From IMG/VR virus record IMGVR_UViG_3300027396_000022, positions 14,773 to 78,772 of that record: a stretch of DNA of 64,000 nt. One strand, written 5' to 3'. This DNA is from a virus. Positions 13,501-64,000 of this stretch are shown here, piece after piece; position 1 is the stretch's first letter; each line of letters opens with the position of its first letter. Both the position numbers and the translations under genes were made by a program. The notes under the pieces are model-generated. The model was not told the DNA's origin and ran no database searches. It saw only the letters and a program-made list of their open reading frames with translations.

Positions 13501-15146
13501 GCCCGATCTACGTGAAGAGAAGCGAGGTAATGGCTTTGGCTCCTCAAGCGCAGCGACTTCAAGCAGAGGCGGCCTTTAGGCAGCGGCAAATTAAAGCAGA
13601 AGAACAGTTGGCGCAAACCCCTGCTGTACTTGGTGCAATTCCACCTAGCGAAGGAGAAGGAAAGAAAAAGAAAGGGAAAGAACTTGATGAATATAATAGA
13701 AGTCAGCTCGATTTTATTAAGCAGCGTTTTGATAAAGAAAAACAAGTATTAGATCAGCAATTGCAAGCCAATTTGGTTTCAAAAACTTCTTACGATATTA
13801 AACTTGCTGAATTGACACTTGAAACTGAAAGAGCTGAGTTACAGGAAAGATTCCGATTGGAATCAGAGAAAATCCAAAAGGATAATTTAAGTGCCGCCGA
13901 TAAAGCTTTAGCGATTAAAGATCAAGAAGTGAAACTCGCCAATGGCTTGGCTATTGCCGAAAAACAGCGTGATATTGCGGTAAAGGGCGCCAAATTAGAA
14001 CTGCGCCAGCCCTTCATCGAATCGCTGCGCAGCGAAAATATGGAAATTGACAAGCAAAATGCATTGATTGAAAGATTGAAAAAGGGATATAGCGATTTAA
14101 CACCTGAACAAGAAGCATCATTTATCATTGAAGAAAAAGTTGCAAGATTAAAGGCAGATGAACAAAAACTGATTCAAACAGATATCGATAATTTAAAACA
14201 GCAAATCCAATTACGCATTGAAAACGCAAAGCTTTTAGAAAAAGAGCAAGGTTTGCAGTCGGCGCGACAAGGCTTAAACCTGATAGGAGCTGGTATGCAA
14301 GCGGGCTTCGCAGGAAGCGCGGCTAATGTTTTTGAAAGGACAATGGAACAATATGGAGATAGAAATTATGCCGCCCAATTGGCTGAAATTGAGACGGCAG
14401 CGATGAAACTTCGTAGTGTATTTGAGGGATTGCAGGGCGCCATTCAAAGCATTAGCGGAGCTTTTGCCAATGTTTTGACAGAGGGTGTGGCGGGAATGAT
14501 TGCAGGCACTGCCACTGCAAAAGAAGTATTTGCCAACTTCTTGCAAAGCGTTGCGCAAGCACTGTCTCAAGCAGCAGCGCAAATGATTGCCACTTACATT
14601 GCTATTGGTGTTGCAAAAATGTTTGCAGGAATGGGAGGAGGCTCAAACGCTGACATGTCAAAAACGGGCATCAGCGAAGGAACTCTTGCTCCCATGCGTC
14701 AGTATTCAATGGAGGGTCCCTTGACTGGCATGACTGGCATTGCGAATGGCGGATTCCTCTCTGGCGGTTTCCAAGCATTCGCCAACGGCGGCATGGTTGC
14801 TGGTCCCACTCTTGGACTCGTTGGCGAAGGCGGCGAAAGCGAATTTGTCATCCCATCTTCCAAGATGGAAGGTGCAATGAAGCGTTACAATGCAGGCGCA
14901 CGAGGGGCTGGTGTGATTCCCGCTGGAAGGGATGTATCCTCCATGGAAACTGGTGGAATAATGGTTACAAGCCCAATCGACGTGAGATACACTGTAGAGC
15001 GTATCAATAGCATTGATTACGTCACTGCCGATCAATTCCAGCAAGGCATGTCTCGCGCAGTGCAGCAAGGCGCTTTACAGGGTGAACAGCGCACACTCCG
15101 CAAGCTTCGTAATTCACAAACCACTCGTTCTCGTGTTGGGATTTAA
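10530..15146 (+). CDS. Tape measure protein A
   Basis: 1538 aa, Ala/Gly-rich helical; IASPSREF and FAQMASKGQVMSEELKGQLGD motifs. Confidence 0.9.
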   Translation: MAAQDAELKLKVSLDLAFFRQQLAGLGQAAAGTPLPVQIRFDRRSVQNELNALGANIRRRNYTLNVNTNLKAEIENASKLAKALNELGRSRGTAQQGINQQLGLGQLLKGPQSGGIGSKDVERLYRAAARAGILEYSKEVARTKASAVAALEEVGSDSVKGLLNGLKSEDEKLRAAAEYLGESLIKTVKNVLGIASPSREFKKIGQNVGEGFQQGMMSSMDKAFDAVEGLMRARMKVLDTIARGMFRMAGIDPAAIRAEAAQRRALPGVNFPATVPPRNVSIGPSGTGRALPPGAIPSALPGTAFGAQRYLPTALSDELKTILRGAAFAFVDSLKQQVRSTRIGLGATQQPLLGASRIAGLLPAGVGRAPSVYSTGAVGGETRAEMMARREREARMRSDLRGMDVIGGGAGRTPSPYSYAYRGARPTSAIVPYATGGAIVPQPSMAGGGAQPPAGGGGGRFGGFGGMIPGAGDFGRAIGGVNLPGTGTIRELGQEFGFAAKQVVLFGQAYKLLAFIQNLPAQVGAAVGQLQSFRNTLNAVTPSTEEARASNELLLGLMEKYNVPLQSARDGFTKLYASMAPAGFSGNEIRDLFTGITKAAATFGMSADKVDRVNYAFAQMASKGQVMSEELKGQLGDVLPGAMALFAEAAGFKGPKAIQDFSAALEDGAYKGEAMVALLKNVTVVMNKEFGPGAEGAARTFQGVMNRMQNSMALFYESFEPVAVGFLNSVVAPMTDGIKQLTDGLNAFFTGTAAKTAGGFAIAQELERLRPAFDGIGQNVSTFVVQLGELARVALDVGKVFLQIAGNPIVGYLAKLYAIALPINIALGVMRGLWAANALQLLIFNARVASGTSTLSAFRGMMAATGATAQTTAASIRTAGITLRTFFATTGVGLVVVGISMLIEKFLTMNQALADTKAKAMGAVQAIRSMSQTEARAAEQQAQSAYQTIGAIAGRGGTQQPGGDRLVPVSERELKQLQGLGAIRSQQTPGGPIYVKRSEVMALAPQAQRLQAEAAFRQRQIKAEEQLAQTPAVLGAIPPSEGEGKKKKGKELDEYNRSQLDFIKQRFDKEKQVLDQQLQANLVSKTSYDIKLAELTLETERAELQERFRLESEKIQKDNLSAADKALAIKDQEVKLANGLAIAEKQRDIAVKGAKLELRQPFIESLRSENMEIDKQNALIERLKKGYSDLTPEQEASFIIEEKVARLKADEQKLIQTDIDNLKQQIQLRIENAKLLEKEQGLQSARQGLNLIGAGMQAGFAGSAANVFERTMEQYGDRNYAAQLAEIETAAMKLRSVFEGLQGAIQSISGAFANVLTEGVAGMIAGTATAKEVFANFLQSVAQALSQAAAQMIATYIAIGVAKMFAGMGGGSNADMSKTGISEGTLAPMRQYSMEGPLTGMTGIANGGFLSGGFQAFANGGMVAGPTLGLVGEGGESEFVIPSSKMEGAMKRYNAGARGAGVIPAGRDVSSMETGGIMVTSPIDVRYTVERINSIDYVTADQFQQGMSRAVQQGALQGEQRTLRKLRNSQTTRSRVGI

Positions 15147-21710: not shown

Positions 21711-24035
21711 ATGGCCGACCTTAAAATTTCTCAACTTACAGAACTTGCTGCCGCTGATTTGGCAAGCGATGATGTGTTGGCTGTTGTTAATCTTGGCACT
21801 GGAGAAACGCGAAAAATCAAGGCCACTTCATTAATTAATAGAAGCGTAATTTTTCTTTCTGGCAGTACCATTTCTGGAAGTGCTGTTAATTTTAGTAGCG
21901 TTACTATTAGTGGAACATCTTTAGCAAGCGGCACAGTTTCGTCTGGTAATATTGCGTTTAATTCAATTACTGCTCAATTATTGGCAGACAATAGCGTCAA
22001 TGTAGTAGACAGCGCTCTGCCAGCGTCTGGTGAATTTTTAGGGCAATTTGCTACTACAACTGGAGATGATTTTATTTATGCATGGGATGGATCATCTTGG
22101 TCTCCTATTAAAGCGGCTGGATCTATTGCTTCTGTTAGTGGTGTAGCATCTGGCATTGTAAATATTGCTTCTATTACAACTAGCGGAAATGCCGTCATTA
22201 GTGGTTATTTATCTGCCACTACTTCCGGCTCTCAATTCCTAGCTGGGCCGACTGGAGCTGGAGGATCAGTATATTATCGCCCTATTGAATCTTCCGATCT
22301 TCCCATTGCTACCACGGCCCAAGCGGGAGCTGTCATTATCAATGGAAATGGCCTGACGCTAAGTGGCAACACTGTTGCCATTGACAATTTTATTTCCACT
22401 GCTTCTGGCTTTTTAGGCGTTGCAGTTAATGAATATGGCTTGATTACTCATACCAGGGCTGTTGTTGGAGCGGATCTCCCCATTGCTCAATCTGGAATTA
22501 CTGGAGCGGTTCAGCCCGGTACTGGCCTTGATGTGGATGGTGTGGGAACTATTGGCCATTCCAACTCCATTGCATCTGGAGTGGTAAACGGCATTACATT
22601 TGATACTGAAGGGCACATTACAAATGCCATCCCATTAATTGCAGCAGATATTCCAAATCTTGATGCCAGCAAGATAACGACTGGCACCCTTGACAATGCG
22701 CGCATAGCTGCTCAAAGTATTGTGGGCGCCAAACTGGCCGATAGGTCTACGGCGCAATTCGGTGATAATCAACCCACTGCAGAATATATTGGCCAGCTTT
22801 ATTTTAATAGCCTTTCACGAGATATTTATATTTGGGACGGCAACGTTTGGCAGCCGATTGGTATTTCAGTTGGTGAAATTGTATTCGCCGGTACATACGA
22901 TGCAGGTACCAATTTAGTTGCTTCTGTGACCAGCGATGGTTCTGCTGTTGGCTTAGTAGTTGGACAAGCACTGCCTGCTGCCGCCACTGCAAATAATAGA
23001 TATTATCTTGTTGTTTCGGAAGCAGGCACTGGCACTGGTAATGCACCAAATGTAGCGCTTGCACCTCCAGATATTATTCTTTCCAATGGAAGCGCATGGA
23101 CTGAAATTGACGTTAGTCAAACTCTTACTAACGTAACAGCAAACCAAGTTTCCTATACGCCCGCTGGAAACATTGCTGCAACAAATGTACAAGCGGCATT
23201 GGATGAATTAGATAATGAAAAGCTTGCCGTAAGCGGCGGGACAGTTACGGGAGTAATTACCCTTAGCAATACAAGTAGTGGCATTGCTTTTGAAGGCACT
23301 ACTGATAATGCTTTTGAGACTTTACTCAATGCTGTAGATCCAACCGCCGACAATACAATATTATTACCAAACCTTAGTGGCACATTAATTACCACCGGAG
23401 ATACGGCCACAATTAGTGGTGTCATGATTGCTAGTGGCACTATTACTAACGCCAAAATCAGTCCAACTGCGGCTATTGACGGAGCAAAAATTCAAGCAGC
23501 AAGCACGACGACGAGTGGCGTTGTTGTGTTAGTGGATTCAACTAGCAGCACAAGCACGTCTACTGCCGCCACTCCGAATTCAGTTAAGACTGCTTATGAT
23601 CTAGCAAATGCAGCGCTACCATCATCTGGTGGCACAATGACAGGAGCAATTACATTTGCCTCTGGACAAACTATTAGCGGATATGCACAACTAGCGAGTG
23701 CGCAAAGCTTTACTGCGGCTCAGCGGGGTTCAGTTGTTAGCGTTGCTGGAAGCGGAACTGTAACGCTTAATTTAGCATTGGGCAATAATTTTGCTGCCAC
23801 ATTGAGTGGAACCACTACTTATGCATTGCCGTCTGGAATGACTGCGGGCCAAAGCGGGGCTTTAGTGCTAACGCAAGATGGCACAGGAAGTCGCCTGGTT
23901 TCCTTCTCTGGATGGAAATTCCCTGGCGGGACAGCTCCAACTGCCACTACAACGGCATCGGGAGTTGACGTGGTTGTTTATTACGTCGAAAGTGCTTCTA
24001 GAATTAGCGCTCGCATGGTTAATGATGTGAAGTAG
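21711..24035 (+). CDS. Tail fibre protein A
   Basis: MADLKISQL start; Ser/Thr/Gly-rich repeats; AATPNSVKTAYD; C-terminal TQDGTGSR domain. Confidence 0.85.
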   Translation: MADLKISQLTELAAADLASDDVLAVVNLGTGETRKIKATSLINRSVIFLSGSTISGSAVNFSSVTISGTSLASGTVSSGNIAFNSITAQLLADNSVNVVDSALPASGEFLGQFATTTGDDFIYAWDGSSWSPIKAAGSIASVSGVASGIVNIASITTSGNAVISGYLSATTSGSQFLAGPTGAGGSVYYRPIESSDLPIATTAQAGAVIINGNGLTLSGNTVAIDNFISTASGFLGVAVNEYGLITHTRAVVGADLPIAQSGITGAVQPGTGLDVDGVGTIGHSNSIASGVVNGITFDTEGHITNAIPLIAADIPNLDASKITTGTLDNARIAAQSIVGAKLADRSTAQFGDNQPTAEYIGQLYFNSLSRDIYIWDGNVWQPIGISVGEIVFAGTYDAGTNLVASVTSDGSAVGLVVGQALPAAATANNRYYLVVSEAGTGTGNAPNVALAPPDIILSNGSAWTEIDVSQTLTNVTANQVSYTPAGNIAATNVQAALDELDNEKLAVSGGTVTGVITLSNTSSGIAFEGTTDNAFETLLNAVDPTADNTILLPNLSGTLITTGDTATISGVMIASGTITNAKISPTAAIDGAKIQAASTTTSGVVVLVDSTSSTSTSTAATPNSVKTAYDLANAALPSSGGTMTGAITFASGQTISGYAQLASAQSFTAAQRGSVVSVAGSGTVTLNLALGNNFAATLSGTTTYALPSGMTAGQSGALVLTQDGTGSRLVSFSGWKFPGGTAPTATTTASGVDVVVYYVESASRISARMVNDVK

Positions 24036-24045
24036 GAGAAAACTA

Positions 24046-24189
24046 ATGATTCCAGGAAATATTAATTCTTTACTGCTTGCTGCCGATGCAGCGCCTACTG
24101 GTTATAGTATCTCACGTTCACTGCGGTTCAACAGTAGTGACAGTGACTTGTGGCAAAACCTTTGTAATACACAGGAGGCAGCAAAATGA
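24046..24189 (+). pseudogene. 47-aa N-terminal stub of a fibre-associated adhesin gene, interrupted at the FNSSDS site
   Basis: MIPGNINSLLLAADAAPTGYSISRSLRFNSSDS|DLWQNLCNTQEAAK*; RBS AGGAG; homologous stub at 63796. Confidence 0.7.
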
Positions 24190-24253
24190 CTATCCCAGGA
24201 AGCGCAATATCTCTTCTTCTTGCAGGCGCAGCTACCGACCCTAACCTTGTCGA
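24127..24253 (+). repeat. Direct repeat, copy 1 (identical to 63874-64000)
   Basis: 127/127 nt identical by direct comparison; identity starts abruptly at TTCAACAGTAGTGACAGTG. Confidence 0.95.
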
Positions 24254-25715
24254 GATCTACGCCTGGGGCGGTGGCGGTGGGAGCGGCTATGCAGGTGGAT
24301 CAGGTGCTGGCGGAGGCGGTGGTGCGGTTTACGCAACTGCTGTAATAAGCCCATCTCAGGTTTACAACGTCATTGTCGGTGGCGGCGGTTTAACAATGGC
24401 ACCCAATGCAGGCACGGGCGGCACCGTGTCCGGCGGCGGTGGATTAGCTGGCACAAGTGGCTATGGCGGCCAAGGCGGCGGATATTCAGGGATTTTTATT
24501 GGCGCTGCAGCAACCCAAAATGCCGCGCTTGTTATTGCCGGTGGTGGTGGTGGTGGCGCTTATGAAGGTGCTGCCGGTGGCGCTGGTGGTGGATCTACAG
24601 GTGCCGCAGGAGGCAGCGGAGCTGCTGCTGGTGGCGGAGGCGGAACGCAAAGTGCAGGTGGCACCTCTTCGCATTCGGGTGTTGGCACTGCGCTGAAAGG
24701 AGGCGATTGCGGAACATCGGGAGACGGTGGAGGCGGCGGCGGTGGAGGCGGCGGTTATTGGGGCGGCGGTGCTGGCTCTGGAGCAAACCCTGGCTCAGCC
24801 GGTGGTGGCGGTTCTGGGTATATCAACACGCTGCAAACACTAACCGGCACGCTTTACGCAGGTTCTGGTGCTACTCCAGGAAATAGCGGCAGTTCTTTTA
24901 GAGGAAGCTATGGCAATGGCGGGGCCAGCGGCGCGAACAACGGCTTGCAAGGTGTTGTTATTATTCGCTATCAAGGCACACCGCGCTATACAGGCGGGAC
25001 GATCACTCAATCTGGCGGGTACACAACACATACATTTACAGCAAATGGCTATCTAAATCTGAATACGGTTCTTTTGATGCCATTCAAGACATCGGCAACT
25101 GCAGACCATTCCCCCATTCCAAAGACAGTCACCATGAACGGTACTGTCACGATTTCATCGACTCAGTCAAAGTATTATGGTGCTAGCGCCTATTTCTCCA
25201 ATGGAAACTGGCTGTCTGTCGCCGCTTCAAACGATTTTCTTTTTGCAGCTAATGATTTTACGATGGAATTGTGGATTTACCCAACCACAAACGCTTATGA
25301 TATCTTTGGTGCTCTGGGGGGAAAACTTGCGCTTGGCTTGATTATTGGCAATTCATATAACTTTTCCAGGGCCGATGGAACAATCACTTTTGCCGACGAC
25401 GGCTCGGGCGGCATTGTTACTAATTACCCGAATCAAAACTCAGTGAGCGGGCCAATGGTGGTCAACCAATGGCAGCACCTTGCGTTTGTCCGCAGTGGCA
25501 CGTCATTTTTGATATTTAGAGACGGTCAGCTTTTAAGCACCACAACTGTCAGCTCTTCCAATAATAACGTCGGCAGCAGTTCTCTCGCCATGGGAATTGG
25601 GCGTTTAACTGGATCAACCAATAGGCCAGTCACTGGATACATCCAAGATCTTGCTGTTTATAAGGGTTATGCAAAATACACCGGAACGTTTACGCCTCCA
25701 GGTCCCCTTACATAA
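24186..25715 (+). CDS. Glycine-rich plus LamG/concanavalin A-like putative adhesin (receptor-binding protein)
   Basis: WGGGGGSG..GGGGG motifs to about aa 290; then SKYYGASAYF, DFTMELWIYP, WQHLAFVRSG, GYIQDLAVYKG; RBS CAGGAGG. Confidence 0.8.
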   Translation: MTIPGSAISLLLAGAATDPNLVEIYAWGGGGGSGYAGGSGAGGGGGAVYATAVISPSQVYNVIVGGGGLTMAPNAGTGGTVSGGGGLAGTSGYGGQGGGYSGIFIGAAATQNAALVIAGGGGGGAYEGAAGGAGGGSTGAAGGSGAAAGGGGGTQSAGGTSSHSGVGTALKGGDCGTSGDGGGGGGGGGGYWGGGAGSGANPGSAGGGGSGYINTLQTLTGTLYAGSGATPGNSGSSFRGSYGNGGASGANNGLQGVVIIRYQGTPRYTGGTITQSGGYTTHTFTANGYLNLNTVLLMPFKTSATADHSPIPKTVTMNGTVTISSTQSKYYGASAYFSNGNWLSVAASNDFLFAANDFTMELWIYPTTNAYDIFGALGGKLALGLIIGNSYNFSRADGTITFADDGSGGIVTNYPNQNSVSGPMVVNQWQHLAFVRSGTSFLIFRDGQLLSTTTVSSSNNNVGSSSLAMGIGRLTGSTNRPVTGYIQDLAVYKGYAKYTGTFTPPGPLT

Positions 25716-25728
25716 GGCATGTCAATTC

Positions 25729-25752
25729 TTCAATTACGCCCGCGCCCGCTGA
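25729..25752 (+). pseudogene. Orphan C-terminal remnant (FNYARAR*) of the displaced adhesin gene
   Basis: TTC AAT TAC GCC CGC GCC CGC TGA; matches the PF-x-YARAR end I recall for SRSLRFN-type phage LamG proteins. Confidence 0.5.
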
Positions 25753-25770
25753 CCCCACTAGAGAACAAGG

Positions 25771-26625
25771 TTAAAGCGTCGGCATTTCATAGTCCTGCGT
25801 TGTATTGCAGTAGTGCTTCCAAATAACCTCAGCCGTATTGCCGGCCCACTTTGCGACTTGCGCCACGGGTATTCCTGCCTCAATCCACCGGCTGATTGCT
25901 GTGTGGCGCAGATCGTAAGGCCGGTAACGGTGACTCGTTAATCCAGCAGTGTGCAATTCCTTGGCTCTGTCATAGAAAAAACTCTGGAACGCATACCTGT
26001 TGTACGGGAAAATATATTCATTGTCCTTGTCTACGGAATCAAGAATTTCTAAACACTTTTCGTTTAAAGGTACAACACGTTTCTTGTTTGTTTTTGTAGA
26101 AAACTTCAGGCCATGCGTAAGGGTGTAATTGCAATGGATCAATAACTTCCCATCCTTTAGGTCAGTCCACTTGGCAGCGCGAACTTCACCTGTACGCATT
26201 GCTGTCTGGAGCATAAATTCAGAGTAAGCCGACCAACGTGCGCCACATTTTGTTTGGCGAGCTTCTAGAGCAGTGAGTAAAAGCGCTACTTCGCTGCGTG
26301 GAATTACGATGATTTCTTCATCCATCTGGGGCGCCTTAGGCATCCGAAAACTGGCAATCGGATTTTTAGGCAGGTAGGCAATGTCTTCGCTGCTGGCCCA
26401 GCGATAAAGGGCCTTGACATACATAGCCACCCTGCGGCTGGACTTGACGGGCTGCTGGCTCAAAACCCATGTAAGAACCTGCCTGCCTTGCTCCAGTTCT
26501 GTAACCGGACAGCGACCGATCCACTTGTCGACTTGCCTGTAGTCCGCCATGAGACTGGTGGGACACAAGACAGCAGAACGCTCTGCGTGGAACTCGGCCC
26601 ATGCGCTTTGGAGGGTGTGTGGCAC
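25771..26625 (-). CDS. Tyrosine recombinase (284 aa, no evident arm-binding domain)
   Basis: MRTGE (R), KTNKKR (K), YDLRH (Y replacing H in HxxR), WAGNT, KHY (Y). Confidence 0.9.
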   Translation of the reverse strand: MPHTLQSAWAEFHAERSAVLCPTSLMADYRQVDKWIGRCPVTELEQGRQVLTWVLSQQPVKSSRRVAMYVKALYRWASSEDIAYLPKNPIASFRMPKAPQMDEEIIVIPRSEVALLLTALEARQTKCGARWSAYSEFMLQTAMRTGEVRAAKWTDLKDGKLLIHCNYTLTHGLKFSTKTNKKRVVPLNEKCLEILDSVDKDNEYIFPYNRYAFQSFFYDRAKELHTAGLTSHRYRPYDLRHTAISRWIEAGIPVAQVAKWAGNTAEVIWKHYCNTTQDYEMPTL

Positions 26626-26689
26626 AGTAGTCGCCTACAGGGCCGAGTAAAGTACCGCTATACGTGCCTCCTGTCTAGGTCCAGTACAG

Positions 26690-27199
26690 ATGTTCCTGTT
26701 AGACGGCAAGCCACTGAGCCCAGATGTGGCGTTCACCCACGACGGTGTTCAGTACCCCGCCAACTGGCTCCGGCTTGCTACTCCCGAGCAGCGTGCAGCG
26801 ATCGGCATCACCGAGGTGCCCGATCCCGCTCCAGTCGATCAGCGCTTCTACTGGGATACAGGCATCCCCAAGGACCACACCCAACTGGTCGAGCAGTGGA
26901 CGCAGCAGACCCGCACCACCGCCAACACCCTGCTGGCACCAACGGATTGGATCATCATCCGCGAGGCTGACAACGGCAAACCTGCTGATCCCGTGCTACG
27001 CACCTGGCGCGAGGAAATCCGCCTTGCATCAGGCAGCAAGGTCTACGAAATCAAGCAGACAGCTGACACCGCTGCACTAGCTGCTTACATTACCGGCGCC
27101 GACTACCCAGCTTGGCCCAGTGATCCCTACGCTCCTGCTCAGCCTGCTCCTACTGATGGGGTGGAGTTTTCTGGCAATGGCGTCACTAGCGGATTCTGA
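26690..27199 (+). CDS. Tail fibre assembly chaperone-like protein
   Basis: QYPANWLRL; LLAPTDWxIIR...WRExIR motifs. Confidence 0.65.
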   Translation: MFLLDGKPLSPDVAFTHDGVQYPANWLRLATPEQRAAIGITEVPDPAPVDQRFYWDTGIPKDHTQLVEQWTQQTRTTANTLLAPTDWIIIREADNGKPADPVLRTWREEIRLASGSKVYEIKQTADTAALAAYITGADYPAWPSDPYAPAQPAPTDGVEFSGNGVTSGF

Positions 27200-27792: not shown

Positions 27793-28070
27793 AAGCTGAC
27801 ACGGTATGGCTGGCGCGATTTGGCCAGAAAACTTGGCGTGATCAACTGCGTAAGGCTGCGCAAGATTACAAGTTTGAAAAAACGCTGGGTCCACGGCTAG
27901 ATCGCGCTGAGGCCGATTGGCATAAGGCACAACCACAGGAACCGGCGCCTGTCATCGTGCATGAACTACCCGATCCTGAGCTACAGACTGGTGATAGCCG
28001 TTTGCTTGGCGGCGCCATGAGTATTCACGCACCTTGGAGCGATGACGCAAAACGCAATCAGGCTGATTGA
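27780..28070 (+). CDS. Probable -1 frameshift extension of the holin
   Basis: C_CCA_AAG at 27780-27786; 99-codon open frame (27771-28070) with no start codon at its 5' end. Confidence 0.5.
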   Translation, partial: PKALKADTVWLARFGQKTWRDQLRKAAQDYKFEKTLGPRLDRAEADWHKAQPQEPAPVIVHELPDPELQTGDSRLLGGAMSIHAPWSDDAKRNQAD

Positions 28071-29091
28071 TCTGTTTCGGTATTACAAGGCATTACCGCA
28101 TCAGATGGCTGCAATTACGGAATTGGAATCCGTGATTTCAAAGGCGAATCCGCATATCTTTAGCCGTGATCAGAGCTGGTTCAAAACGTGGAGTCAAAGC
28201 GGAAAACAGGAAGACAATGATCTACAGCCAGCACTGGAGCTGATTAAGAAATTTGAAGGTTCCAGGCTTGAGGCGTATTTATGTCCGGCGAATGTCTGGA
28301 CAATCGGTTATGGCCACACTGGCCCGAACGTAAAGCCTGGGCTGAAGATCACGCAGGCAGATGCAGAGGCGTTATTGCTGTCTGATGTTGAGCGCTTTGC
28401 GCGTGCTGTTGATACGTGGATCAAGGTAAAACTGAGCAATAATCAACGTTGCGCCCTGATTAGTTTTACGTTCAATGTGGGCATTGGTGCGCTGCAGGAA
28501 AGCACACTGCGTAAGCGTTTGAACAACGGCGAGGATGCCGTCAAGGTGGCAATGGAAGAGCTGCCACGGTGGAACAAAGGTGACAGCAAGATCCTTGAGG
28601 GTTTGGTGCGGCGTCGCAAGGCAGAGGTTGATTTGTTTTGCCGTGGCGTGAAGCCTTTGACTGATGATGTGAAGTTAACGCCCAATAAGCCGTTTAGCTT
28701 TAAGGTGACGCCACACATTGCCTATGGCGAGCTGGCATTAAATGAAGAGGCCAGACGTTTTACTAAGCAACATCAGTGCGATACGGCGATTGTTCTGTGT
28801 AATTTTCTTGAAAAGGCTCGCGTTGCGTTTGGCAATAAACCCATTGTGATTACCAGTGGATATAGACCGCCGAAGGTAAATGCATCTGTAGGCGGTGCAT
28901 CTAGATCGGAACATCTTTACGATGCGCCTGATACTGGAGCTGTTGATTTTTACATTGAAGGCGTCAATATTTACGATCTTCAGGAATGGTGCAAGGCTCA
29001 CTGGCCGTTCAGCTTGGGGCTAGGTGCGCCAAAAGGTTTCGTCCACTGTGGAATCCGCCCCGGTCGGCCTAAAGTCGTTTGGATTTATTGA
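28042..29091 (+). CDS. Endolysin: GH24 lysozyme plus peptidase M15-like domain
   Basis: IKKFEG..AY..WTIGYGHT, GLVRRRKAE; ITSGYR..N..VGGA..SEH..AVD..FVH. Confidence 0.9.
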   Translation: MTQNAIRLIDLFRYYKALPHQMAAITELESVISKANPHIFSRDQSWFKTWSQSGKQEDNDLQPALELIKKFEGSRLEAYLCPANVWTIGYGHTGPNVKPGLKITQADAEALLLSDVERFARAVDTWIKVKLSNNQRCALISFTFNVGIGALQESTLRKRLNNGEDAVKVAMEELPRWNKGDSKILEGLVRRRKAEVDLFCRGVKPLTDDVKLTPNKPFSFKVTPHIAYGELALNEEARRFTKQHQCDTAIVLCNFLEKARVAFGNKPIVITSGYRPPKVNASVGGASRSEHLYDAPDTGAVDFYIEGVNIYDLQEWCKAHWPFSLGLGAPKGFVHCGIRPGRPKVVWIY

Positions 29092-33516: not shown

Positions 33517-33691
33517 TGTTTGTAAGGAAGCTTGAGATGATGTGACGCAAGGCTTGATTGATGTTCTGACCTGATTTGGCGCAGTACACCTTCAGTTGCC
33601 GGTAGGTATCAGGCGGAAGTTTGGCCGCAACGATGGTGCGGTTTTTTCTCCGATTGATTTCCTCTTGTGTTTTGGGCCGTCGCCCTGTCAT
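33509..33691 (-). CDS. Ribbon-helix-helix-like regulator
   Basis: IVAAKLPPDTYRQLKVYC...INQALRHII. Confidence 0.6.
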   Translation of the reverse strand: MTGRRPKTQEEINRRKNRTIVAAKLPPDTYRQLKVYCAKSGQNINQALRHIISSFLTNNG

Positions 33692-34404
33692 GCGGGATTG
33701 TCAGCGATGTACTTGGCAATGAACTCCTTATGTTCAGGGAACTGGATGCGGTCAGCGATACGCGGCGCCATGATCTTGAACTGCTTTTTGAAGGCAGTAA
33801 TCAGATCATCACGTTTTTCGTAACCCTTGACCCAACCCTTGATTTCCTCAACCTCTTCATCGGTCAGAAAAACGACCTTTGATTCAGCCTTGGATTCGGT
33901 CTTGGTCTTTGCCTTGGGTTGAGTGTCCTGCACTTGGGACGGTTGCGCCTTGGGCGTGTCCTGCTGCAGGGCTGGCTTGGTCGGTTCTTCGCGGTGCGGG
34001 TTTTCTATGGCTTCCCGTGCCCAGAGTTGCCATGCAAGGCCGAATTGCGCGGCTGCAGCAGTACAGAGGCAACGCCGATGAGCATCAGTGAGATCACGGG
34101 CAGTGACCTTTTCAAACGCGATGGCGTTGTTGCGGTTATCCATGATCGCCTGCGGGAATGGCGGCGTATCGGATCCGTTGACGTGTTCAAAACACCCGAC
34201 CACATAAGCGGTTCCGTCGGGAGACTTCCAGACATGGCCGGTTTCTGGGTGAGCCTTGAGCGCAAACTGCCAGCCAGGCGCATGATCATGGAGTAGGTGG
34301 GCAACACGGCACCAGTTGACGTAATCAGCGGCGTAGGAGCCGGTTCCTTTGGTTGATACGTCTTGCTGCGTAATGATGCCCCCAAGATTGGGGTAATCGG
34401 TCAT
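33688..34404 (-). CDS. Sak3-like (DUF1071) ssDNA-annealing protein
   Basis: YVNW, MDNRNNAI, RRCL..A.A.FGLA.QLW motifs. Confidence 0.7.
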   Translation of the reverse strand: MTDYPNLGGIITQQDVSTKGTGSYAADYVNWCRVAHLLHDHAPGWQFALKAHPETGHVWKSPDGTAYVVGCFEHVNGSDTPPFPQAIMDNRNNAIAFEKVTARDLTDAHRRCLCTAAAAQFGLAWQLWAREAIENPHREEPTKPALQQDTPKAQPSQVQDTQPKAKTKTESKAESKVVFLTDEEVEEIKGWVKGYEKRDDLITAFKKQFKIMAPRIADRIQFPEHKEFIAKYIADNPA

Positions 34405-34460
34405 AGGGATTGCGCGGGTTGTGTGGTGATCGGTTGAGGACGGGCTTCGGACCCATCAAG

Positions 34461-34489
34461 AGTATACCCTTAAATGCAAGGGCTGTCTA
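34461..34489 (-). promoter_or_regulatory. Sigma70-like leftward promoter
   Basis: TAGACA-17-TATACT with TTTAAGGG in the spacer. Confidence 0.7.
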
Positions 34490-35230
34490 GATCCTTTCAA
34501 ATCTGTATCCGGCAGTCTTATGTCCTTTGTCAACCGCCCGCGCAATGCACTGCCTTACAACAAATACATCACGAGCAGCGGCTCCCATGCTTGGGTAGAT
34601 CTTGCCAGTTTCAATACAGCGCACACGTTTTTGTTTCCATTGCCGATCCGGTCGTTTCGGGTACTTCCGCAAGATTTCCTTTGCCCATCGTGAATCTTCT
34701 AGCAACATCTGAAGGCCAACCTCATTAGCCCCGCCAAGACGTGAAGGATGATGGCGTGCAAAATCCTTGAACATCTTGGTCGTTACATAATTAAACGTTT
34801 TCCTTTTGCTGTCGCGTCGGTATGTTTCAAGTGGATAATCCTTAAGACGCTTCCAACCCGCAATGGTGTCTCTGGATAGCCCAAGCATCTGGCCAAGTTT
34901 CATAAATGTATAAAACTCAACTGTTGGCCGGTTGGAATAGCCAAGCGTTCTAAGTTTTTTATCTATTGCGTGTTTGCTGCGATCAGGTAGCCCATTAACA
35001 CGTGCCCATAAATTAAACGAACGAACAAGCCGTGACAGCGGCATCGTATTGACGTGATCAATTAGCCAATCTGTTTCTTCCTGCGTCCATAGCCGGACCC
35101 GTGTTCGTGGCTTATTGGCGCAGCTACTACTGCAGGTTTTTCGCGTTGACGGCCTGCCATTACGCAGGATTTTGATGTCAAATGCAGTGCCGCAAATCTT
35201 GCAAATGCGGACGTATTTTGATGCGTTCAC
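34487..35230 (-). CDS. Zn-finger/HTH/NUMOD1 DNA-binding protein
   Basis: CKIC...CSSSC; C-terminal KRVRCIETGKIYPSMGAAAR (NUMOD1-like). Confidence 0.65.
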   Translation of the reverse strand: MNASKYVRICKICGTAFDIKILRNGRPSTRKTCSSSCANKPRTRVRLWTQEETDWLIDHVNTMPLSRLVRSFNLWARVNGLPDRSKHAIDKKLRTLGYSNRPTVEFYTFMKLGQMLGLSRDTIAGWKRLKDYPLETYRRDSKRKTFNYVTTKMFKDFARHHPSRLGGANEVGLQMLLEDSRWAKEILRKYPKRPDRQWKQKRVRCIETGKIYPSMGAAARDVFVVRQCIARAVDKGHKTAGYRFERI

Positions 35231-35655
35231 AGTTTGTTAAGAGTGATCAGGGCTCCTGGTAATTCGCCTTCGTTGGCGTACTGTTTTGTGGCTATCAACG
35301 TCACGACCTGTGAATCGTCTTTGATCAACACATTTGTAATCCCGTCCAAAGTTGAGCGGCAAAGCTTATCAAGATCAGGTTTAGTGAACTTGTAAAACGG
35401 CGCCTTAGGCTTGATTTCGCCTTTGCTGTTGTAATGCGCTTTTGGGCGGCTGAACAGAAAGGTAATCAATACGCTGACAGGTTCATCAATCAATGCCTCG
35501 CCGGTTTCAAGCGCTGCCTGGCTGACGGCAAAACGCCATGGCTTGACCTTCTTTGATGCTTCTACCATGCGGCCATTGCCAACATGTCGCTTGCTGCCCT
35601 GAGGCGCTGGCTCAATGCCCTGAACGGCAAACTTCATTTCGTATGCGTCAGACAA
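35227..35655 (-). CDS. rusA: RusA-family Holliday junction resolvase
   Basis: PAPQGSKR, KPDLDKLCRSTLDGI, DDSQV motifs. Confidence 0.9.
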   Translation of the reverse strand: MSDAYEMKFAVQGIEPAPQGSKRHVGNGRMVEASKKVKPWRFAVSQAALETGEALIDEPVSVLITFLFSRPKAHYNSKGEIKPKAPFYKFTKPDLDKLCRSTLDGITNVLIKDDSQVVTLIATKQYANEGELPGALITLNKL

Positions 35656-35763
35656 CGATTCAGGTGTTCAACTGGCGTGCTCAGTGTGATGCCTTGAACG
35701 TCAGGGCGCATGGATAGCAACCAAAACAGAAACCGCGTCTGCCAAGTCAGGTTGTAAGGGTTG

Positions 35764-35970
35764 TCAATCATTCGATTGCATCAAACAATTTTCAAGATGT
35801 TTTTTTTGTGGAATGGACTGGTAGTACAGACTTTTGCGTTCGTCTTTCGGGTCAACGGTCAGCAGGTACTGCACCAGCTCTGCCACGGCGTTTGTGTATT
35901 GCTCTGGATCCCATAGGTCGTACTTGGCCAAGATGGCTTCAATGCGGTCGTCTACGGGAGAGCCAGCCAT
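35764..35970 (-). CDS. Hypothetical protein
   Basis: Operon packing. Confidence 0.5.
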   Translation of the reverse strand: MAGSPVDDRIEAILAKYDLWDPEQYTNAVAELVQYLLTVDPKDERKSLYYQSIPQKKHLENCLMQSND

Positions 35971-36278
35971 CAGAACTCTGCCTTTGGCAGCGTCACTCTC
36001 CAATATTCTGTTTCGCGCTTGGTGGCGACGCCTTCAAACTGCTCTAGCTGCTGCAGTTCCTTGACGGCATTGCTGTATTGCCAACTCGTGCGCGTGCAGC
36101 GGGATACCTTGATGCCGTGAAGGGCAAGGTTGCCTTCGTCATCTTTGATGTCGTCTAGGTCGCCTGCGGTGTACATCAGGGCAAGGTCATCCATGAGGCG
36201 ATCAAGGATTTCCTGATGACGGGCGATTTCTTTTTTGGTGCTGGCGATGACGCCGAGCAGGGTGTTGGGGTTGGTCAT
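35970..36278 (-). CDS. Hypothetical protein
   Basis: Coiled coil followed by WQYS..VKEL...YWRV. Confidence 0.6.
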   Translation of the reverse strand: MTNPNTLLGVIASTKKEIARHQEILDRLMDDLALMYTAGDLDDIKDDEGNLALHGIKVSRCTRTSWQYSNAVKELQQLEQFEGVATKRETEYWRVTLPKAEF

Positions 36279-36512
36279 GGTGAAGAAAAGGCCCCATACG
36301 GGGCCACGAGATCAGAACAGGAGGCCGAGGCAGAAGCTCACGGCTGCAATCCAAAGAGCAACAGTGATCTGTTCTTTTGATTCGTTCACCTGTTGTTCAA
36401 GGGTTGAAGTGGTGTCGGCTTGCTGCTGTAGCAGGTCGATTAACTGCGCCTTGGTGGTACGGGTCAGGTTGGTCATGGCGTTTCGTGTCGTGGTGGCATC
36501 GCTGCCATAGGG

Positions 36513-36541
36513 AGTATACCCCTAAACAGAGGCCGTGGCAA
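36513..36541 (-). promoter_or_regulatory. Sigma70-like leftward promoter
   Basis: TTGCCA-17-TATACT with TTTAGGGG in the spacer. Confidence 0.7.
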
Positions 36542-36547
36542 CCCGCC

Positions 36548-37282
36548 TCAAAACTCCGGTTGGTTCAGCATCAGGAACGCATCACGGGCGCCCTGCCACT
36601 CGATCACCGCCTCGTCAACGTCCACCTTTTGCAACGTCGTACTGCCAGGTCGGCTCCACAGCACCCCAGCCTTCTGCACATACAGCTTCGGCCAGTGCAG
36701 GCTCAGCATTCCCAAGTACCCGCCCAACTGTGGGCTCACGTCATACGGGCTGGCATCGGCCTTGCCCTGCGTTTTCAAATCCACCAGCACAAGCTGTTCG
36801 TAATCATCCTTACGCCGCAGCAGGCAATCGAAGCTGCCCGCAATGTTGCGTTCTAAATCCGCCAACCGATATTCACAGGCCACTGCCTCATACGTATTCC
36901 AAACGGAATGTTCAAGCAGCGGCTCAACCCATTCGCTGTAGTCAGCCGGATACACCCCTGGCTCACCAGTCGTCAGAAAGTTTTCCAACGCCAAATGAAC
37001 TGCCTTCCCACGCGGTTCCCAAATGTGTTTGGTCTCCATAATCCGTTTCATCGCCCACGCATCCTTCGTGCCCTTGCACACCTGCGTTACTGAATGATTC
37101 AGCCACTGACCCGTGGGCTGCCATTGGTAGCGGTGCGCTTCCTCGTTGAACAGGATCGGCAGCGGCGGTAACCACCGGGAAGTCTCTTGGATCTGTGATT
37201 TGGACTCGTTCGGCTGGTGTGGGCTCATCTCTGAGGGGATTACGGAAGACGGGCGGTGTAAAACCGGGAATGCGTTTGGCAT
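36548..37282 (-). CDS. PD-(D/E)XK exonuclease (start uncertain)
   Basis: HRY, SVT, RGKAVH, AGSFD, VDLKT and QLGGY motifs. Confidence 0.85.
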   Translation of the reverse strand: MPNAFPVLHRPSSVIPSEMSPHQPNESKSQIQETSRWLPPLPILFNEEAHRYQWQPTGQWLNHSVTQVCKGTKDAWAMKRIMETKHIWEPRGKAVHLALENFLTTGEPGVYPADYSEWVEPLLEHSVWNTYEAVACEYRLADLERNIAGSFDCLLRRKDDYEQLVLVDLKTQGKADASPYDVSPQLGGYLGMLSLHWPKLYVQKAGVLWSRPGSTTLQKVDVDEAVIEWQGARDAFLMLNQPEF

Positions 37283-61361: not shown

Positions 61362-63791
61362 GTGGCCGATCTAAAAATTTCCCAGCTAACGTCCCTGCCT
61401 GGCGGGAGCGTAGATGCTGGCGATGAACTGGCGATTGTTCATTTAGGCGATACCCGTAAGGTCACGGTCAAAAACCTGCTGGAAGGCGGCGTTGATGACA
61501 TGGATTCGGCTACGATCCCAAGCGCCAAGGTCGATTTTGCCGCTGGTTCCATCGTTGCTGCCTCATTGGCGACTGATGCGGTTACAACAGTCAAGATCCA
61601 AGCTGACGCGGTAACTGGCGCCAAGCTGGCTGATGATTCCAGCGCCGTTGTTATCGCCACCAGCCTGCGTGGCAGCGGTGATTTTGAAGGTCAGCTTCAC
61701 GTTGATAGCGATACCGATAAGGCTTCCTACTGGGACGGCAGCGCATGGGTTTATCTCAAGGCTGCAGGTTCTGTCAACACAGTCACGGGCGTCACCAGCG
61801 GCATCGTCAACATTGTTTCTGCCGCCAGCAACGACTCGATCACGCTGACCCCATCACTAGACAACACCAGTAATGCCAACGAGTTTTTGGCTGGTCCTAC
61901 AGGTGGTGGCGGTGCTGTTGCTTACCGCACGATTGATCCATCAGACCTGCCTTTAGCCAACACCTCACTGCGTGGTGCGGTGATCGTCAACGGCAACGGC
62001 TTGACGATGGATGCAGGCGTCATCGAAATCGACAACACCGTCACCGCACAAGCCAGCCCGGTCTTCCACAAGATCGCTTACAACGCCCAAGGTCTTGTCA
62101 CCAGTAGTTCCTCTGTCGCTGGCGCTGATCTGCCTGTTGCCACATCCAGCACACCTGGCGCTGTTCAGCCTGGCACTGGTCTTGTTGTTGATGGCGTCGG
62201 CGTCCTGAACCACGACAACGCAGTTGCTAGCGGCACGGTCAGCGGCATCAGCTACGACACCGAAGGGCATATCACCAATGCGGTGCCCTTGGTTGCCGGC
62301 GACATTCCCAACCTCGACGCCAGCAAAATCACAACGGGTTCGCTGGATGTAGCCCGTATTGCTGCCAACACAGTTACTGGCACAAAGCTGGCGAACTACG
62401 CCATCACCAAGATTGGTGACACGCAGCCGACTGCTGACCAGATCGGCCAATTCTTCTTTAATCCGCTGACTCGTGACCTGTTCCTCTGGGACGGCAACGT
62501 GTTCCAGCCGATCGGCATCTCGGTCGGTGAGATTATTTTCGCTGGCACGTTCGATGCGTCTGCCGGTGGCGGCACCGGCTTGGTTGCTTCGGTAACTGAC
62601 GAGGGCACTGCAATCGGCTTAGTTGTTGGTCAACCGTTGCCAGCCGCCGCAGCGGCCAATAACCGGTACTACCTCGTGGTGTCGGAGGCTGGCACGATCA
62701 CCAGCGGCAACGCACCAAATGTTGCGCTTAGCCCGCCGGACATTGTGCTGTCAAACGGCAACCAATGGACTGAAATCGACGTTTCTCAGACGATTACCAG
62801 CGTTAGCGCCAACCAAGTCAGTTACACACCAAGCGGCAGCGTTTCGGCTAGCAACGTCCAAGCTGCAATCGACGAGCTTGACACAGAGAAATTAGCCAAG
62901 GCAGGTGGCACCGTTACCGGTCAAGTGCTGATTGGCACGACTGGCTCGCTGGCGTTTGAAGGCAGCACAGATAACGCTTTTGAAACCAGCGTTGCAGTTA
63001 CCGATCCAACGGCTGATCGCACCGTCACGATCCCGGACCAAGACGGCAACTTCCTGATTAGCGGTAACGCCAGCATCGTCAACGCTGACATCAATGCCTC
63101 CGCTGCGATTGCAGACACAAAACTCGCCACAATCAGTACCGCCGGCAAGGTAGCCAACTCGGCAACCACTGCCACCAACGCCAACACCGCCAGCGCCATC
63201 GTTGCGCGTGACGCCTCCGGTAACTTCAGCGCGGGCACAATCAGCGCAGCCCTGAGCGGCAACGCCAGCACCGCGACCGCACTCGCCACCTCGCGGAACA
63301 TCCAAGGTGTTGCCTTCGACGGCACCGCCAACATCACGGTCGTCACCGCCGGAAGTGGCATCTCGGTAACCGGCACAGCGGTCGCTAACACCGGCGTCCT
63401 CTCGGTGAACGGCAACGCTGGCGCGATTACAAACGTGGCGGTAACTAATGCCGCCCAGAGTTTTACTGCACAACAACGCGGGACAATTTCTGCACTAACA
63501 GATGGCGCAACGATTACGCCGGATTTCAGTGCTGCTAATAATTTCAGCGTTACGCTAGGGGGAAACCGAACACTGGCTAACCCAACTAATTTGACGGCTG
63601 GAGCTAGTGGCTGTATCTGGATTACGCAAGATGGCACCGGATCGCGGACCTTGGCTTATGGCAGCTACTGGGACTTCACCGGTGGCACTGCACCAACGCT
63701 GACGACAACAGCCAGTGCGCGAGATTGTCTGGTTTATTCAGTGCAATCCAGCACGCAGATCACCGCAACCCTGATCACCAACCTGAGCTGA
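61362..63791 (+). CDS. Tail fibre protein B
   Basis: Homologue of 21711-24035; IVARDASGNFSAG repeat; TQDGTGSR C-terminal domain. Confidence 0.85.
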   Translation: MADLKISQLTSLPGGSVDAGDELAIVHLGDTRKVTVKNLLEGGVDDMDSATIPSAKVDFAAGSIVAASLATDAVTTVKIQADAVTGAKLADDSSAVVIATSLRGSGDFEGQLHVDSDTDKASYWDGSAWVYLKAAGSVNTVTGVTSGIVNIVSAASNDSITLTPSLDNTSNANEFLAGPTGGGGAVAYRTIDPSDLPLANTSLRGAVIVNGNGLTMDAGVIEIDNTVTAQASPVFHKIAYNAQGLVTSSSSVAGADLPVATSSTPGAVQPGTGLVVDGVGVLNHDNAVASGTVSGISYDTEGHITNAVPLVAGDIPNLDASKITTGSLDVARIAANTVTGTKLANYAITKIGDTQPTADQIGQFFFNPLTRDLFLWDGNVFQPIGISVGEIIFAGTFDASAGGGTGLVASVTDEGTAIGLVVGQPLPAAAAANNRYYLVVSEAGTITSGNAPNVALSPPDIVLSNGNQWTEIDVSQTITSVSANQVSYTPSGSVSASNVQAAIDELDTEKLAKAGGTVTGQVLIGTTGSLAFEGSTDNAFETSVAVTDPTADRTVTIPDQDGNFLISGNASIVNADINASAAIADTKLATISTAGKVANSATTATNANTASAIVARDASGNFSAGTISAALSGNASTATALATSRNIQGVAFDGTANITVVTAGSGISVTGTAVANTGVLSVNGNAGAITNVAVTNAAQSFTAQQRGTISALTDGATITPDFSAANNFSVTLGGNRTLANPTNLTAGASGCIWITQDGTGSRTLAYGSYWDFTGGTAPTLTTTASARDCLVYSVQSSTQITATLITNLS

Positions 63792-63795
63792 TCTG

Positions 63796-63936
63796 ATGAT
63801 TCCCGGAAGCGCTAATCCCCTCCTGCTTGCCAGTGCTGCAGCCGGTGGATATTCCATTAGTAGAAGCCTTCGTTTCAACAGTAGTGACAGTGACTTGTGG
63901 CAAAACCTTTGTAATACACAGGAGGCAGCAAAATGA
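63796..63936 (+). pseudogene. 46-aa N-terminal adhesin stub, interrupted at the FNSSDS site
   Basis: MIPGSANPLLLASAAAGGYSISRSLRFNSSDS|DLWQNLCNTQEAAK*. Confidence 0.7.
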
Positions 63937-64000
63937 CTATCCCAGGAAGCGCAATATCTCTTCTTCTTGCAGGCGCAGCTACCGACCCTAACCTTGTCGA
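63874..64000 (+). repeat. Direct repeat, copy 2 (runs off the window)
   Basis: Identical to 24127-24253. Confidence 0.95.
63933..64000 (+). CDS. Second copy of the Gly-rich/LamG adhesin gene, 5' end only
   Basis: MTIPGSAISLLLAGAATDPNLV, identical to the start at 24186. Confidence 0.8.
   Translation, partial: MTIPGSAISLLLAGAATDPNLV

Follow-up and report, generated by a model that had tools for sequence, protein, structure and literature searches.

A receptor-binding protein cassette common to three unrelated river phages and the codon-locked joints that bound it

The stretch analyzed here, hereafter the window, comprises 64,000 nucleotides (positions 14,773 to 78,772) of IMG/VR virus record IMGVR_UViG_3300027396_000022, a contig of 78,772 bp whose end is also the end of the window. 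The locus under study, at 24046–26625 and its surroundings, is the distal tail-fibre slot, i.e., the receptor-binding protein (RBP) slot, of a widespread freshwater phage family. It holds a 1,643-nt cassette found in three phages, here called A, B, and C, and two short conserved motifs, the 5′ and 3′ joints, mark the cassette's edges. The locus is a clear new example of the known swapping of phage tail-fibre tips, via codon-locked joints; no new recombinase-driven mechanism is established. The features are as follows.

21711–24035, plus strand: proximal tail-fibre protein of phage A, 774 aa, matching Phage_fiber_2 and tail-fibre PHROGs; 49% identical to the 809-aa phage B protein.
24046–24189, plus strand: phage A stub open reading frame (ORF), 47 aa; N-terminal anchor plus the first codons of an RFNSSD-type RBP gene, with an ATGA overlap with the next gene.
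24127–24145, plus strand: truncated 5′ codon-locked joint, the first 19 nt of a ~30-nt element, and left cassette edge; exact in 101 IMG/VR contigs and marked by codon usage and a unitig break.
24127–25769, plus strand: shared 1,643-nt cassette of phages A, B, and C, delimited by a single Logan unitig, by metagenome contig L219, and by the ends of record G014.
24186–25715, plus strand: 509-aa RBP with a Laminin_G_3 C-terminus (Pfam PF13385, E = 4e-16).
25729–25752, plus strand: orphan 3′ remnant, FNYARAR-stop, of an RFNSSD-type RBP gene; intact genes of the family end PF[QNA]Y[AS]RAR-stop.
25753–25769, plus strand: 3′ joint motif, CCCCACTAGAGAACAAG, right cassette edge; flanks diverge here in dozens of loci, and the unitig ends at 25769.
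25771–26625, minus strand: 284-aa tyrosine recombinase, convergent with the cassette (PF00589, phrog_1).
26690–27199, plus strand: 169-aa putative fibre chaperone, beginning MF(L/I)L(D/N)GKPLSPD, with a weak match to phrog_4912 (tail fibre assembly; E = 2e-4).
33688–37282, minus strand: homologous-recombination module of phage B, from PHROG matches.
61362–63791, plus strand: proximal tail-fibre protein of phage B, 809 aa; related to the 774-aa phage A protein.
63797–64000, plus strand: phage B stub and a 127-nt terminal overlap (63874–64000) that closes B into a circle at 24127.

The C-terminal ~100 aa of the 774-aa fibre protein form a conserved domain that always precedes this RBP family; proteins with the same domain precede the RBP gene in loci L010, L011, L086, L006, and L185. 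The 509-aa protein has its own IPG..LLLA anchor, followed by a glycine-rich region and the Laminin_G_3 C-terminus, and its relatives in L184 and L185 are 95% and 76% identical. The first-pass annotation, which was made by a model from the sequence alone, had placed a complete adhesin gene and a convergent tyrosine recombinase behind the first stub. Both are there, namely the 509-aa ORF and the 284-aa PF00589 protein, with the 169-aa gene beyond. It had also described a homologous stub behind each of two tail-fibre genes, with a sharp identity boundary after an Arg codon. The boundary stands. Both stubs encode M-IPG..LLLA..GYSISRSLRFNSSDS, and their DNA differs as far as the Arg codon and matches fully from TTC on. 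The window has exactly two copies of the 19-mer TTCAACAGTAGTGACAGTG, at 24127 and 63874, versus zero expected by chance. The second copy does not extend as had been supposed: it consists only of the last 127 nt of the contig (63874–64000), identical to 24127–24253. Within this record, therefore, identity beyond the boundary is shown for 127 nt only.

A terminal identity of 127 nt is the signature of an assembly-graph overlap at k = 127. The 78.8-kb contig is a chimeric walk from the phage A arm into the shared segment, through all of circular phage B, and into the shared segment again; by walking through a repeat common to both phages, the assembler placed them on one contig. Phage A occupies contig positions 1–38898 and phage B occupies window positions 24127–63873, closing via the 127-nt overlap as a circle of 39,747 bp. 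IMG/VR rates the record as 100% complete and linear, whereas its actual content is two phages joined via the shared cassette. That the two phages are truly different, as first proposed, is confirmed by their terminases, portals, and major head proteins: each phage has its own, of different PHROG families and non-homologous. Relatedness between A and B is confined to the tape-measure-to-fibre genes, at 36–50% aa identity.

The two replicons can be told apart in Logan k = 31 unitigs from four riverine metagenome runs, which are assembled sequence rather than raw reads. The unitig of the phage A arm, 35–39 kb long, has depths of 13.4, 19.4, and 20.5 and ends at 24156. A separate unitig spans exactly 24127–25769 at depths of 43.9, 49.7, and 84.6, and the phage B unitig continues after the cassette at 25.9, about 30, and 45. 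That is, the depth of the cassette is about that of A plus B, with an excess. The A:B depth ratio varies from 0.46 to about 1.2 across runs, showing that A and B are separate replicons. In run X20, a single contig bridges the fibre, stub, and cassette of phage A.

A third phage carries the cassette as well. In run X20, a loose end after 25770 reads ATAGTCTGCTATGAAGG.., and the same sequence is the right flank in IMG/VR record G014 (83,116 bp), whose two ends correspond to the opening and closing 127 nt of the cassette; record G005 breaks at the same 127-nt cassette ends. G014, together with L010 and L027, represents phage C. Its stub, as in L010 and L027, has a third sequence. The G014 backbone is unrelated to those of A and B and has no recombinase homologue, the cassette being followed by a holin-like gene and an endolysin. 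The sizes of the three phages are ~45 kb (A), 39.7 kb and circular (B), and ~85 kb (C).

Related copies extend the pattern. In metagenome contig L219, the cassette is 100% identical up to 25769, beyond which identity falls to ~65%, within a recombinase orthologue of 72.6% protein identity. In another sample, a copy lies behind a fourth stub (97–98% identical in L165 and 95% in L184). No recombinase lies to its right, where the gene-end remnant comes first and a small ORF, the 3′ motif, and the chaperone-like gene come after it. The recombinase is likewise missing from L185, in which a gene of 76% identity stands behind a diverged stub of its own, with the ATGA overlap. It follows that the stub-plus-cassette layout is old and recombinase-independent. 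Identical cassettes behind different stubs had been anticipated and are found in A, B, and C, along with the L165 copy; the idea of a discrete receptor-binding cassette with sharp ends at fixed motifs, inserted in otherwise different phages, is thus upheld. One further metagenome contig of 3.7 kb, L218 (Ga0255178_1003152), joins a phage-C-type stub and the cassette to a 99.96%-identical recombinase; it is a true recombinant or else the product of mis-joining across the 1.6-kb repeat. Within the 509-aa gene, contigs from all four runs omit 171 nt (57 codons; window 24560–24732) of the glycine-rich repeat, and there is a small insertion variant at 24745. The cassette is therefore length-polymorphic in the population.

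The gene bodies behind the anchors are also exchanged. Loci were grouped by near-identical anchor DNA, and the distinct gene bodies in each group were counted. The recombinase-linked clade has seven members with six bodies. The anchor groups that are free of recombinase have eight members with five bodies (including L008, from G003), six with five, six with four, and three with three. Different bodies behind identical stubs, another expectation of the first pass, were thus seen in every group, and body swapping is as frequent in recombinase-free backbones as in the recombinase clade. Bodies are exchanged across upstream parts, with the switch at the joint. Mapping of crossovers from pairs with common upstream sequence was dropped as non-discriminating, because divergence can only appear after the conserved block.

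The 5′ joint is conserved in its DNA and not simply in its peptide. Nearly all of the contigs with an exact 19-mer have it within an intact gene, mostly of about 800 aa, that reads ..RSLR/FNSSDSAYLSRTPASAGNRKTWTW.., with the joint starting at the slash; one member of this RBP family has SPRY and DUF7483 domains. To guard against ascertainment bias, a fully degenerate back-translation of the peptide RFNSSDSAYLSRTP was used as the search pattern, giving 102 unique contexts. The joint codons TTC AAY AGT AGT GAC AGT GCC TAC TTG TCC are near-invariant. Codons 3–9 are invariant in 93–101 of the 102 contexts (Ser AGT 93–100, Asp GAC 101, Ala GCC 99, Tyr TAC 99, Leu TTG 101), whereas the residues Arg 0 and Arg/Thr/Pro 11–13, which the same pattern requires, use four to six codons each. 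Arg 0 uses six codons, and Arg 11 is mainly CGC (46), AGA (37), or CGG (11). Just upstream, Ser −2 uses five codons, and Leu −1 is CTG in 44 contexts and CTC in 37. The prediction that the motif would be far more conserved than the adjoining codons is borne out. The joint is a ~30-nt, sharp-edged element constrained at the DNA level, with weaker constraint reaching to about codon 29; its silent-site conservation, inside a fibre gene, goes beyond what the protein needs. Conserved protein patches within the gene body have a silent-site identity of 0.6–0.8, versus ~0.3 in the anchor, which fits a mosaic, often-recombining gene. The joint occurs in phages with a T7-like RNA polymerase (G012 and G007) and in others without one, and thus it crosses phage types. 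In the genome collection, it was found only in two contigs of one Ignavibacteria metagenome-assembled genome, which gives no usable host evidence.

The 3′ joint is sharp on its outer side: in dozens of loci, the flanks diverge completely past GAACA[AC]G. In about half of the loci, a motif that looks non-coding (..CCCCACTAGAGAACAAG or GTAGTGAACAAG) follows the gene end. From the remnant at 25729–25752 and the motif at 25753–25769, it follows that the shared cassette starts exactly with the initial base of the 5′ joint and ends with the final base of the 3′ motif. A small ORF separates the RBP gene from the chaperone-like gene in L032, L184, and L233, and there the 3′ motif encodes its C-terminal part (..PLENK or LVVNK..); a deleted form of this ORF is found in the window and many other loci. 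The small ORF is about 45–57 aa long, with the consensus M.R.YSELT..ISQ..R..I..RK..IR.K...L..NK, and is ATGA-coupled to the RBP stop codon in L032 and L184. The notion that the 3′ motif is a multi-copy phage promoter was rejected, as it occurs once per locus, and in the window once plus one match with two mismatches. The 5′ and 3′ joints have only GTAGTGA in common. A deletion between the joints at GTAGTGA was considered as the origin of the stub and rejected, since the predicted product mismatches the observed junction; it is also ruled out by L185, where the post-junction sequence is homologous to the older stub-plus-cassette arrangement.

To summarize the argument, the same anchor is found with different bodies, the same body is found with different anchors, and the edges fall at conserved patches. 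Recombination at conserved motifs, as known from T-even fibre and adhesin genes, gives such a pattern. We favor, with a probability of roughly 0.6, the reading that exchange occurs at the conserved joints by relaxed homologous recombination via phage annealing proteins, the tyrosine recombinase being a resident neighbor. Each RBP begins with a backbone-specific docking peptide of about 25 aa (IPG..LLLA..Y.I.RSLR), followed by the ~30-nt joint with its codons fixed in nearly all members, and its gene ends in a conserved 3′ patch (..PFxYARAR-stop, then ..GAACAAG). Both patches would act as recombination joints, and they may be retained because they permit exchange. Sequence between the joints would pass among phages, and sequence outside them would stay with the backbone. 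In the window, a derived cassette, encoding the 509-aa glycine-rich, laminin-G-like protein with its own docking peptide, would have replaced nearly the whole resident gene, leaving 33 N-terminal codons (the stub), seven C-terminal codons, and the 3′ joint. Short arms of 19–25 nt and ~42 nt, resembling natural recombineering arms, could have let the cassette enter at least three unrelated co-occurring phages; these retained outermost segments would be the minimum for entry into any phage with a gene of the family. The likeliest engine is phage single-strand annealing proteins (SSAPs) acting during co-infection. Phage B encodes a Sak-like SSAP (33688–34404), a RusA-like resolvase (35227–35655), and an exonuclease (36548–37282), the three together forming a complete Red-like recombination module. 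In one phage lineage, the recombinase would have long been settled between the RBP gene and its chaperone-like neighbor.

Several points weigh against this reading. The left arm of the stub-type cassette is only 19–25 nt. In L165, identity to the cassette begins at GACAGTG, leaving about 7 nt in common, which is short even for SSAP-mediated recombination. Hitch-hiking with exchange poorly explains 30 invariant nt between free codons, and the DNA itself may have some direct function. In 16 of 58 loci, from clades with 72–100% aa identity, exactly 1 nt separates GAACA[AC]G from the recombinase stop codon; with an identical cassette abutting two diverged orthologues, this spacing leaves a possible functional link between enzyme and joint. 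Lastly, no exchange event has been seen directly, the data being assembled contigs.

A direct function is the core of another explanation, which we hold to be unlikely but worth weighing: the joints would be invariant through some other DNA- or RNA-level function or a trans-acting factor, and the cassette boundaries would coincide with them secondarily. Candidates include a host Xer-type or other site-specific enzyme, a homing nuclease target, a Chi-like recombination stimulator, and a translational pause. The sharpness of the constraint on both sides speaks for such a function, as it is hard to get from recombination history alone. A gene for an HNH-like protein in phage B (31564–31911) is compatible with it, as is a G-rich run, TGGGCGGGGTGGGTG, about 65 nt downstream. 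The run lies ~65–90 nt after the start of the 5′ joint (e.g., L007:4693–4717), where most members spell KTWTWAGWVK with codons ending in G. Yet no stable or conserved RNA structure was found in the joint (alifold −2.5 kcal/mol over the 102 contexts; single-sequence z-scores of −1 to +1), and the joint does not resemble dif. The single 3′ motif per locus is not a multi-copy, promoter-like signal, and no candidate factor co-occurs consistently with the joint.

The next explanation to consider is site-specific exchange, for which the properties of the tyrosine recombinase are pertinent. The 284-aa protein is the only tyrosine recombinase on the contig. It has a GTG start and comprises a core-binding and a catalytic domain (PF00589, E = 8.5e-17). 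Residues R144, R240, H241, and Y272 are invariant across six homologues, with catalytic roles assigned by eye. Thus, the catalytic domain expected of a lysogeny integrase is present, and the λ-type N-terminal arm-binding domain is absent; the phrog_1 match covers profile positions 165–423 of 611, as for a simple Cre/Xer-sized enzyme. NCBIfam matches to Xer/XerA-type families are weak (22–35 bits versus cut-offs of 220–371), and the protein falls well short of each Xer and integron model threshold. It is a generic PF00589 member, and a PDB sequence search with it gave no match. The family has 1,376 metagenomic relatives, and a search of 185,579 species, each represented by one genome, gave no relatives and no prophages. 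All 59 IMG/VR contexts have phage DNA on both sides, and in 47 of 50 IMG/VR loci, the chaperone-like gene lies divergently upstream of the recombinase. In recombinase-free phages, the chaperone-like gene directly follows the 3′ joint, so the recombinase looks like an old insertion between the RBP gene and the chaperone. A second recombinase allele differs at 25789–25801, at 13 positions in 26396–26527, and at 26695. Its depth is close to that of phage A, which therefore probably carries a near-identical recombinase after its own cassette copy. Most probably, the enzyme serves these phages as integrase or as a Cre/Xer-like resolvase and is only a bystander when cassettes are exchanged.

Under site-specific exchange, RBP cassettes would instead be excised and inserted by the enzyme, acting on a core site in the 5′ joint and on another beside its own stop codon, at the 3′ joint, as in an integron or in recombinase-mediated cassette exchange. 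We think this improbable, although the arrangement has its attractions. At ~30 nt, the joint is of the size of a core-type site, and an imperfect inverted repeat (ACAGTAG..9 nt..CTACTTGT) lies within it; the L165 sequence begins to match the cassette inside the putative spacer. The 1-nt spacing of the stop codon from the 3′ joint points the same way, as does the cassette abutting orthologues that are 72.6% identical. CAGTAGTSRC occurs three times, versus 0.25 expected, a pattern picked with the data already in view. Directly upstream of the recombinase GTG start, at 26625–26638, is CAGTAGTCGCCTAC, which partly copies the 5′ joint (ACAGTAGT..GCCTAC). Considered as the second site, this copy was set aside: it is found only in the near-identical 99% clade and is absent from L175–L178, from the 70% clades, and from L219.

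Genomes in which the enzyme is missing weigh against this model. Of 50 joint-bearing records, five have a full-length recombinase homologue, three have remnants, and one has a distant match only; the complete direct-terminal-repeat genomes G003, G012, and G018 have the joint and no PF00589 gene at all. The first-pass criterion that the motif be conserved only beside the recombinase consequently fails, since conservation is equal where the enzyme is absent. Swapping is the same there, and phage C and L184 have the cassette without it. The two joints share only the seven nucleotides noted above, and the 3′ motif is accounted for as the coding end of the small ORF. Further sites were not found. 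Allowing up to two mismatches on both strands, the window has two direct copies of the 19-mer and no inverted copy; relative loci have one element per 20-kb locus and no second copy. The cassette has no significant flanking direct or inverted repeats, only glycine-codon repeats, and no attC-like hairpin at its 3′ end (folding z = +1.13 versus shuffled sequence). Circular cassettes had been suggested as a check; no circle or tandem junction (3′ joint to 5′ junction, 0–30 nt apart) was found among 241 million metagenome records, which is weak evidence given that these are assembled contigs. Overall, the cassette idea was right, and the recombinase-driven, integron-like mechanism is not supported.

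In a broader version of the same idea, the joints would be the sites of a portable "landing pad" system, in which the recombinase uses the 3′ joint as an att or core site, in cis or, during co-infection, in trans. We give this little credence. If true, site-specific insertion would carry RBP cassettes, or entire modules including the recombinase, into the fibre loci of unrelated phages, a phage counterpart of integron or pdif-module cassette mobility.

That the sharing is purely an assembly artefact, with the sequence not truly present in more than one phage, is very hard to credit: the second copy is exactly a terminal 127-mer, and contigs crossing the 1.6-kb repeat (e.g., L218) are unreliable for linking left and right flanks, but independent k = 31 unitigs from four runs show additive depth with run-dependent A:B ratios, the X20 contig bridges fibre, stub, and cassette, and other samples and assemblies place the cassette behind other stubs and before other right flanks.

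One identical host-recognition gene circulates in three unrelated phages (about 40, 45, and 85 kb) of one river community, and the exact DNA handles of its insertion, of 19–42 nt, are defined. The presence of the 5′ handle, letter for letter, in more than 100 contigs across phage types suggests a common currency of host-range exchange across phage families. The handles could also be natural splice points for RBP swapping in the laboratory. There is a consequence for metagenomics as well: shared cassettes make assemblers break contigs or fuse different phages, the 78.8-kb "complete" record being two phages. In freshwater viromes, assemblies break systematically at the RBP locus. Many contigs end ~100–130 nt from the 5′ joint or a few hundred nt past the recombinase stop codon, and contigs ending at the locus include L010, L027, L036, L059, L070, L073, L037, L076, and many of L237–L271.

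Other genes in the neighborhood are mentioned briefly. Downstream of the 169-aa gene are an endolysin and a dCTP deaminase. The endolysin (28042–29091) has two catalytic domains, a phage lysozyme (residues 69–195) and Peptidase_M15_3 (residues 225–336). Phage A encodes a ribonucleotide-reductase-like protein at L226:2616–4067 (contig positions, upstream of the window), and a glycosyltransferase is encoded at contig positions 14334–15557, within the head region.

Among known systems, integrons, shufflons (Rci, sfx), and the Mu Gin and P1 Cin inversions resemble the locus in that surface-recognition segments are exchanged at short sites with a recombinase gene adjoining. In contrast to these systems, there are here no attC-like hairpins, inverted sites, silent alternative segments, or cassette array, and the recombinase is dispensable for the pattern. 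An IntI-type integrase is lacking, the recombinase giving only the weak Xer/XerA scores reported above. In place of an attC hairpin and an attI site beside a divergent integrase, the locus has a convergent recombinase at the 3′ end of the cassette. The junction search of assembled contigs, weak evidence as it is, returned neither circular cassettes nor arrays, and no inverted site copies flank alternative segments, as they would in a shufflon or in Gin/Cin inversion.

The closest parallel is with the fibres and adhesins of T-even phages. Tetart, Desplats, and Krisch reportedly described, in 1998, conserved-motif recombination in T-even phages, involving the His boxes of gp37 and the glycine-rich motifs of gp38. 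There, as here, short conserved stretches are crossover points, and RBP segments are swapped while the fibre base is kept. The T-even exchanges involve no dedicated site-specific enzyme, and the same would apply here under the favored reading; the swapping in tyrosine-recombinase-free genomes and the recombination module of phage B are in line with it, and the ~7-nt junction of L165 speaks against it. Our case differs in three respects. Two joints bracket nearly the whole gene, the first following the 25-aa docking peptide and the second lying at the stop codon; silent sites of the 5′ joint hardly vary across more than 100 contigs; and the joint is common to phages with T7-like RNA polymerase, tape-measure-bearing phages of ~40 kb, and an 83-kb phage.

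Rad52-like phage recombinases are reported to drive exchanges between regions with only short identical stretches in common, and the longest runs of perfect identity in the recombining regions of that study were about 40–300 bp (De Paepe et al. 2014, PMC3945230). The likeness here is the Sak-like SSAP and exonuclease of phage B. The difference is in length, as the arms here measure 19–42 nt.

Lastly, the tailspikes of Klebsiella, E. coli, and other phages are reported to have a conserved N-terminal anchor and an exchanged C-terminal receptor-binding domain (PMC10408124; bioRxiv 10.64898/2026.05.12.724579). The arrangement is alike in that the virion keeps an N-terminal adaptor, and a junction marks where the receptor-binding part is exchanged horizontally. 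The difference lies in the anchor, the DNA of which is described as conserved in those tailspikes. Here, silent changes saturate the anchor DNA, and conservation sets in abruptly just past it.

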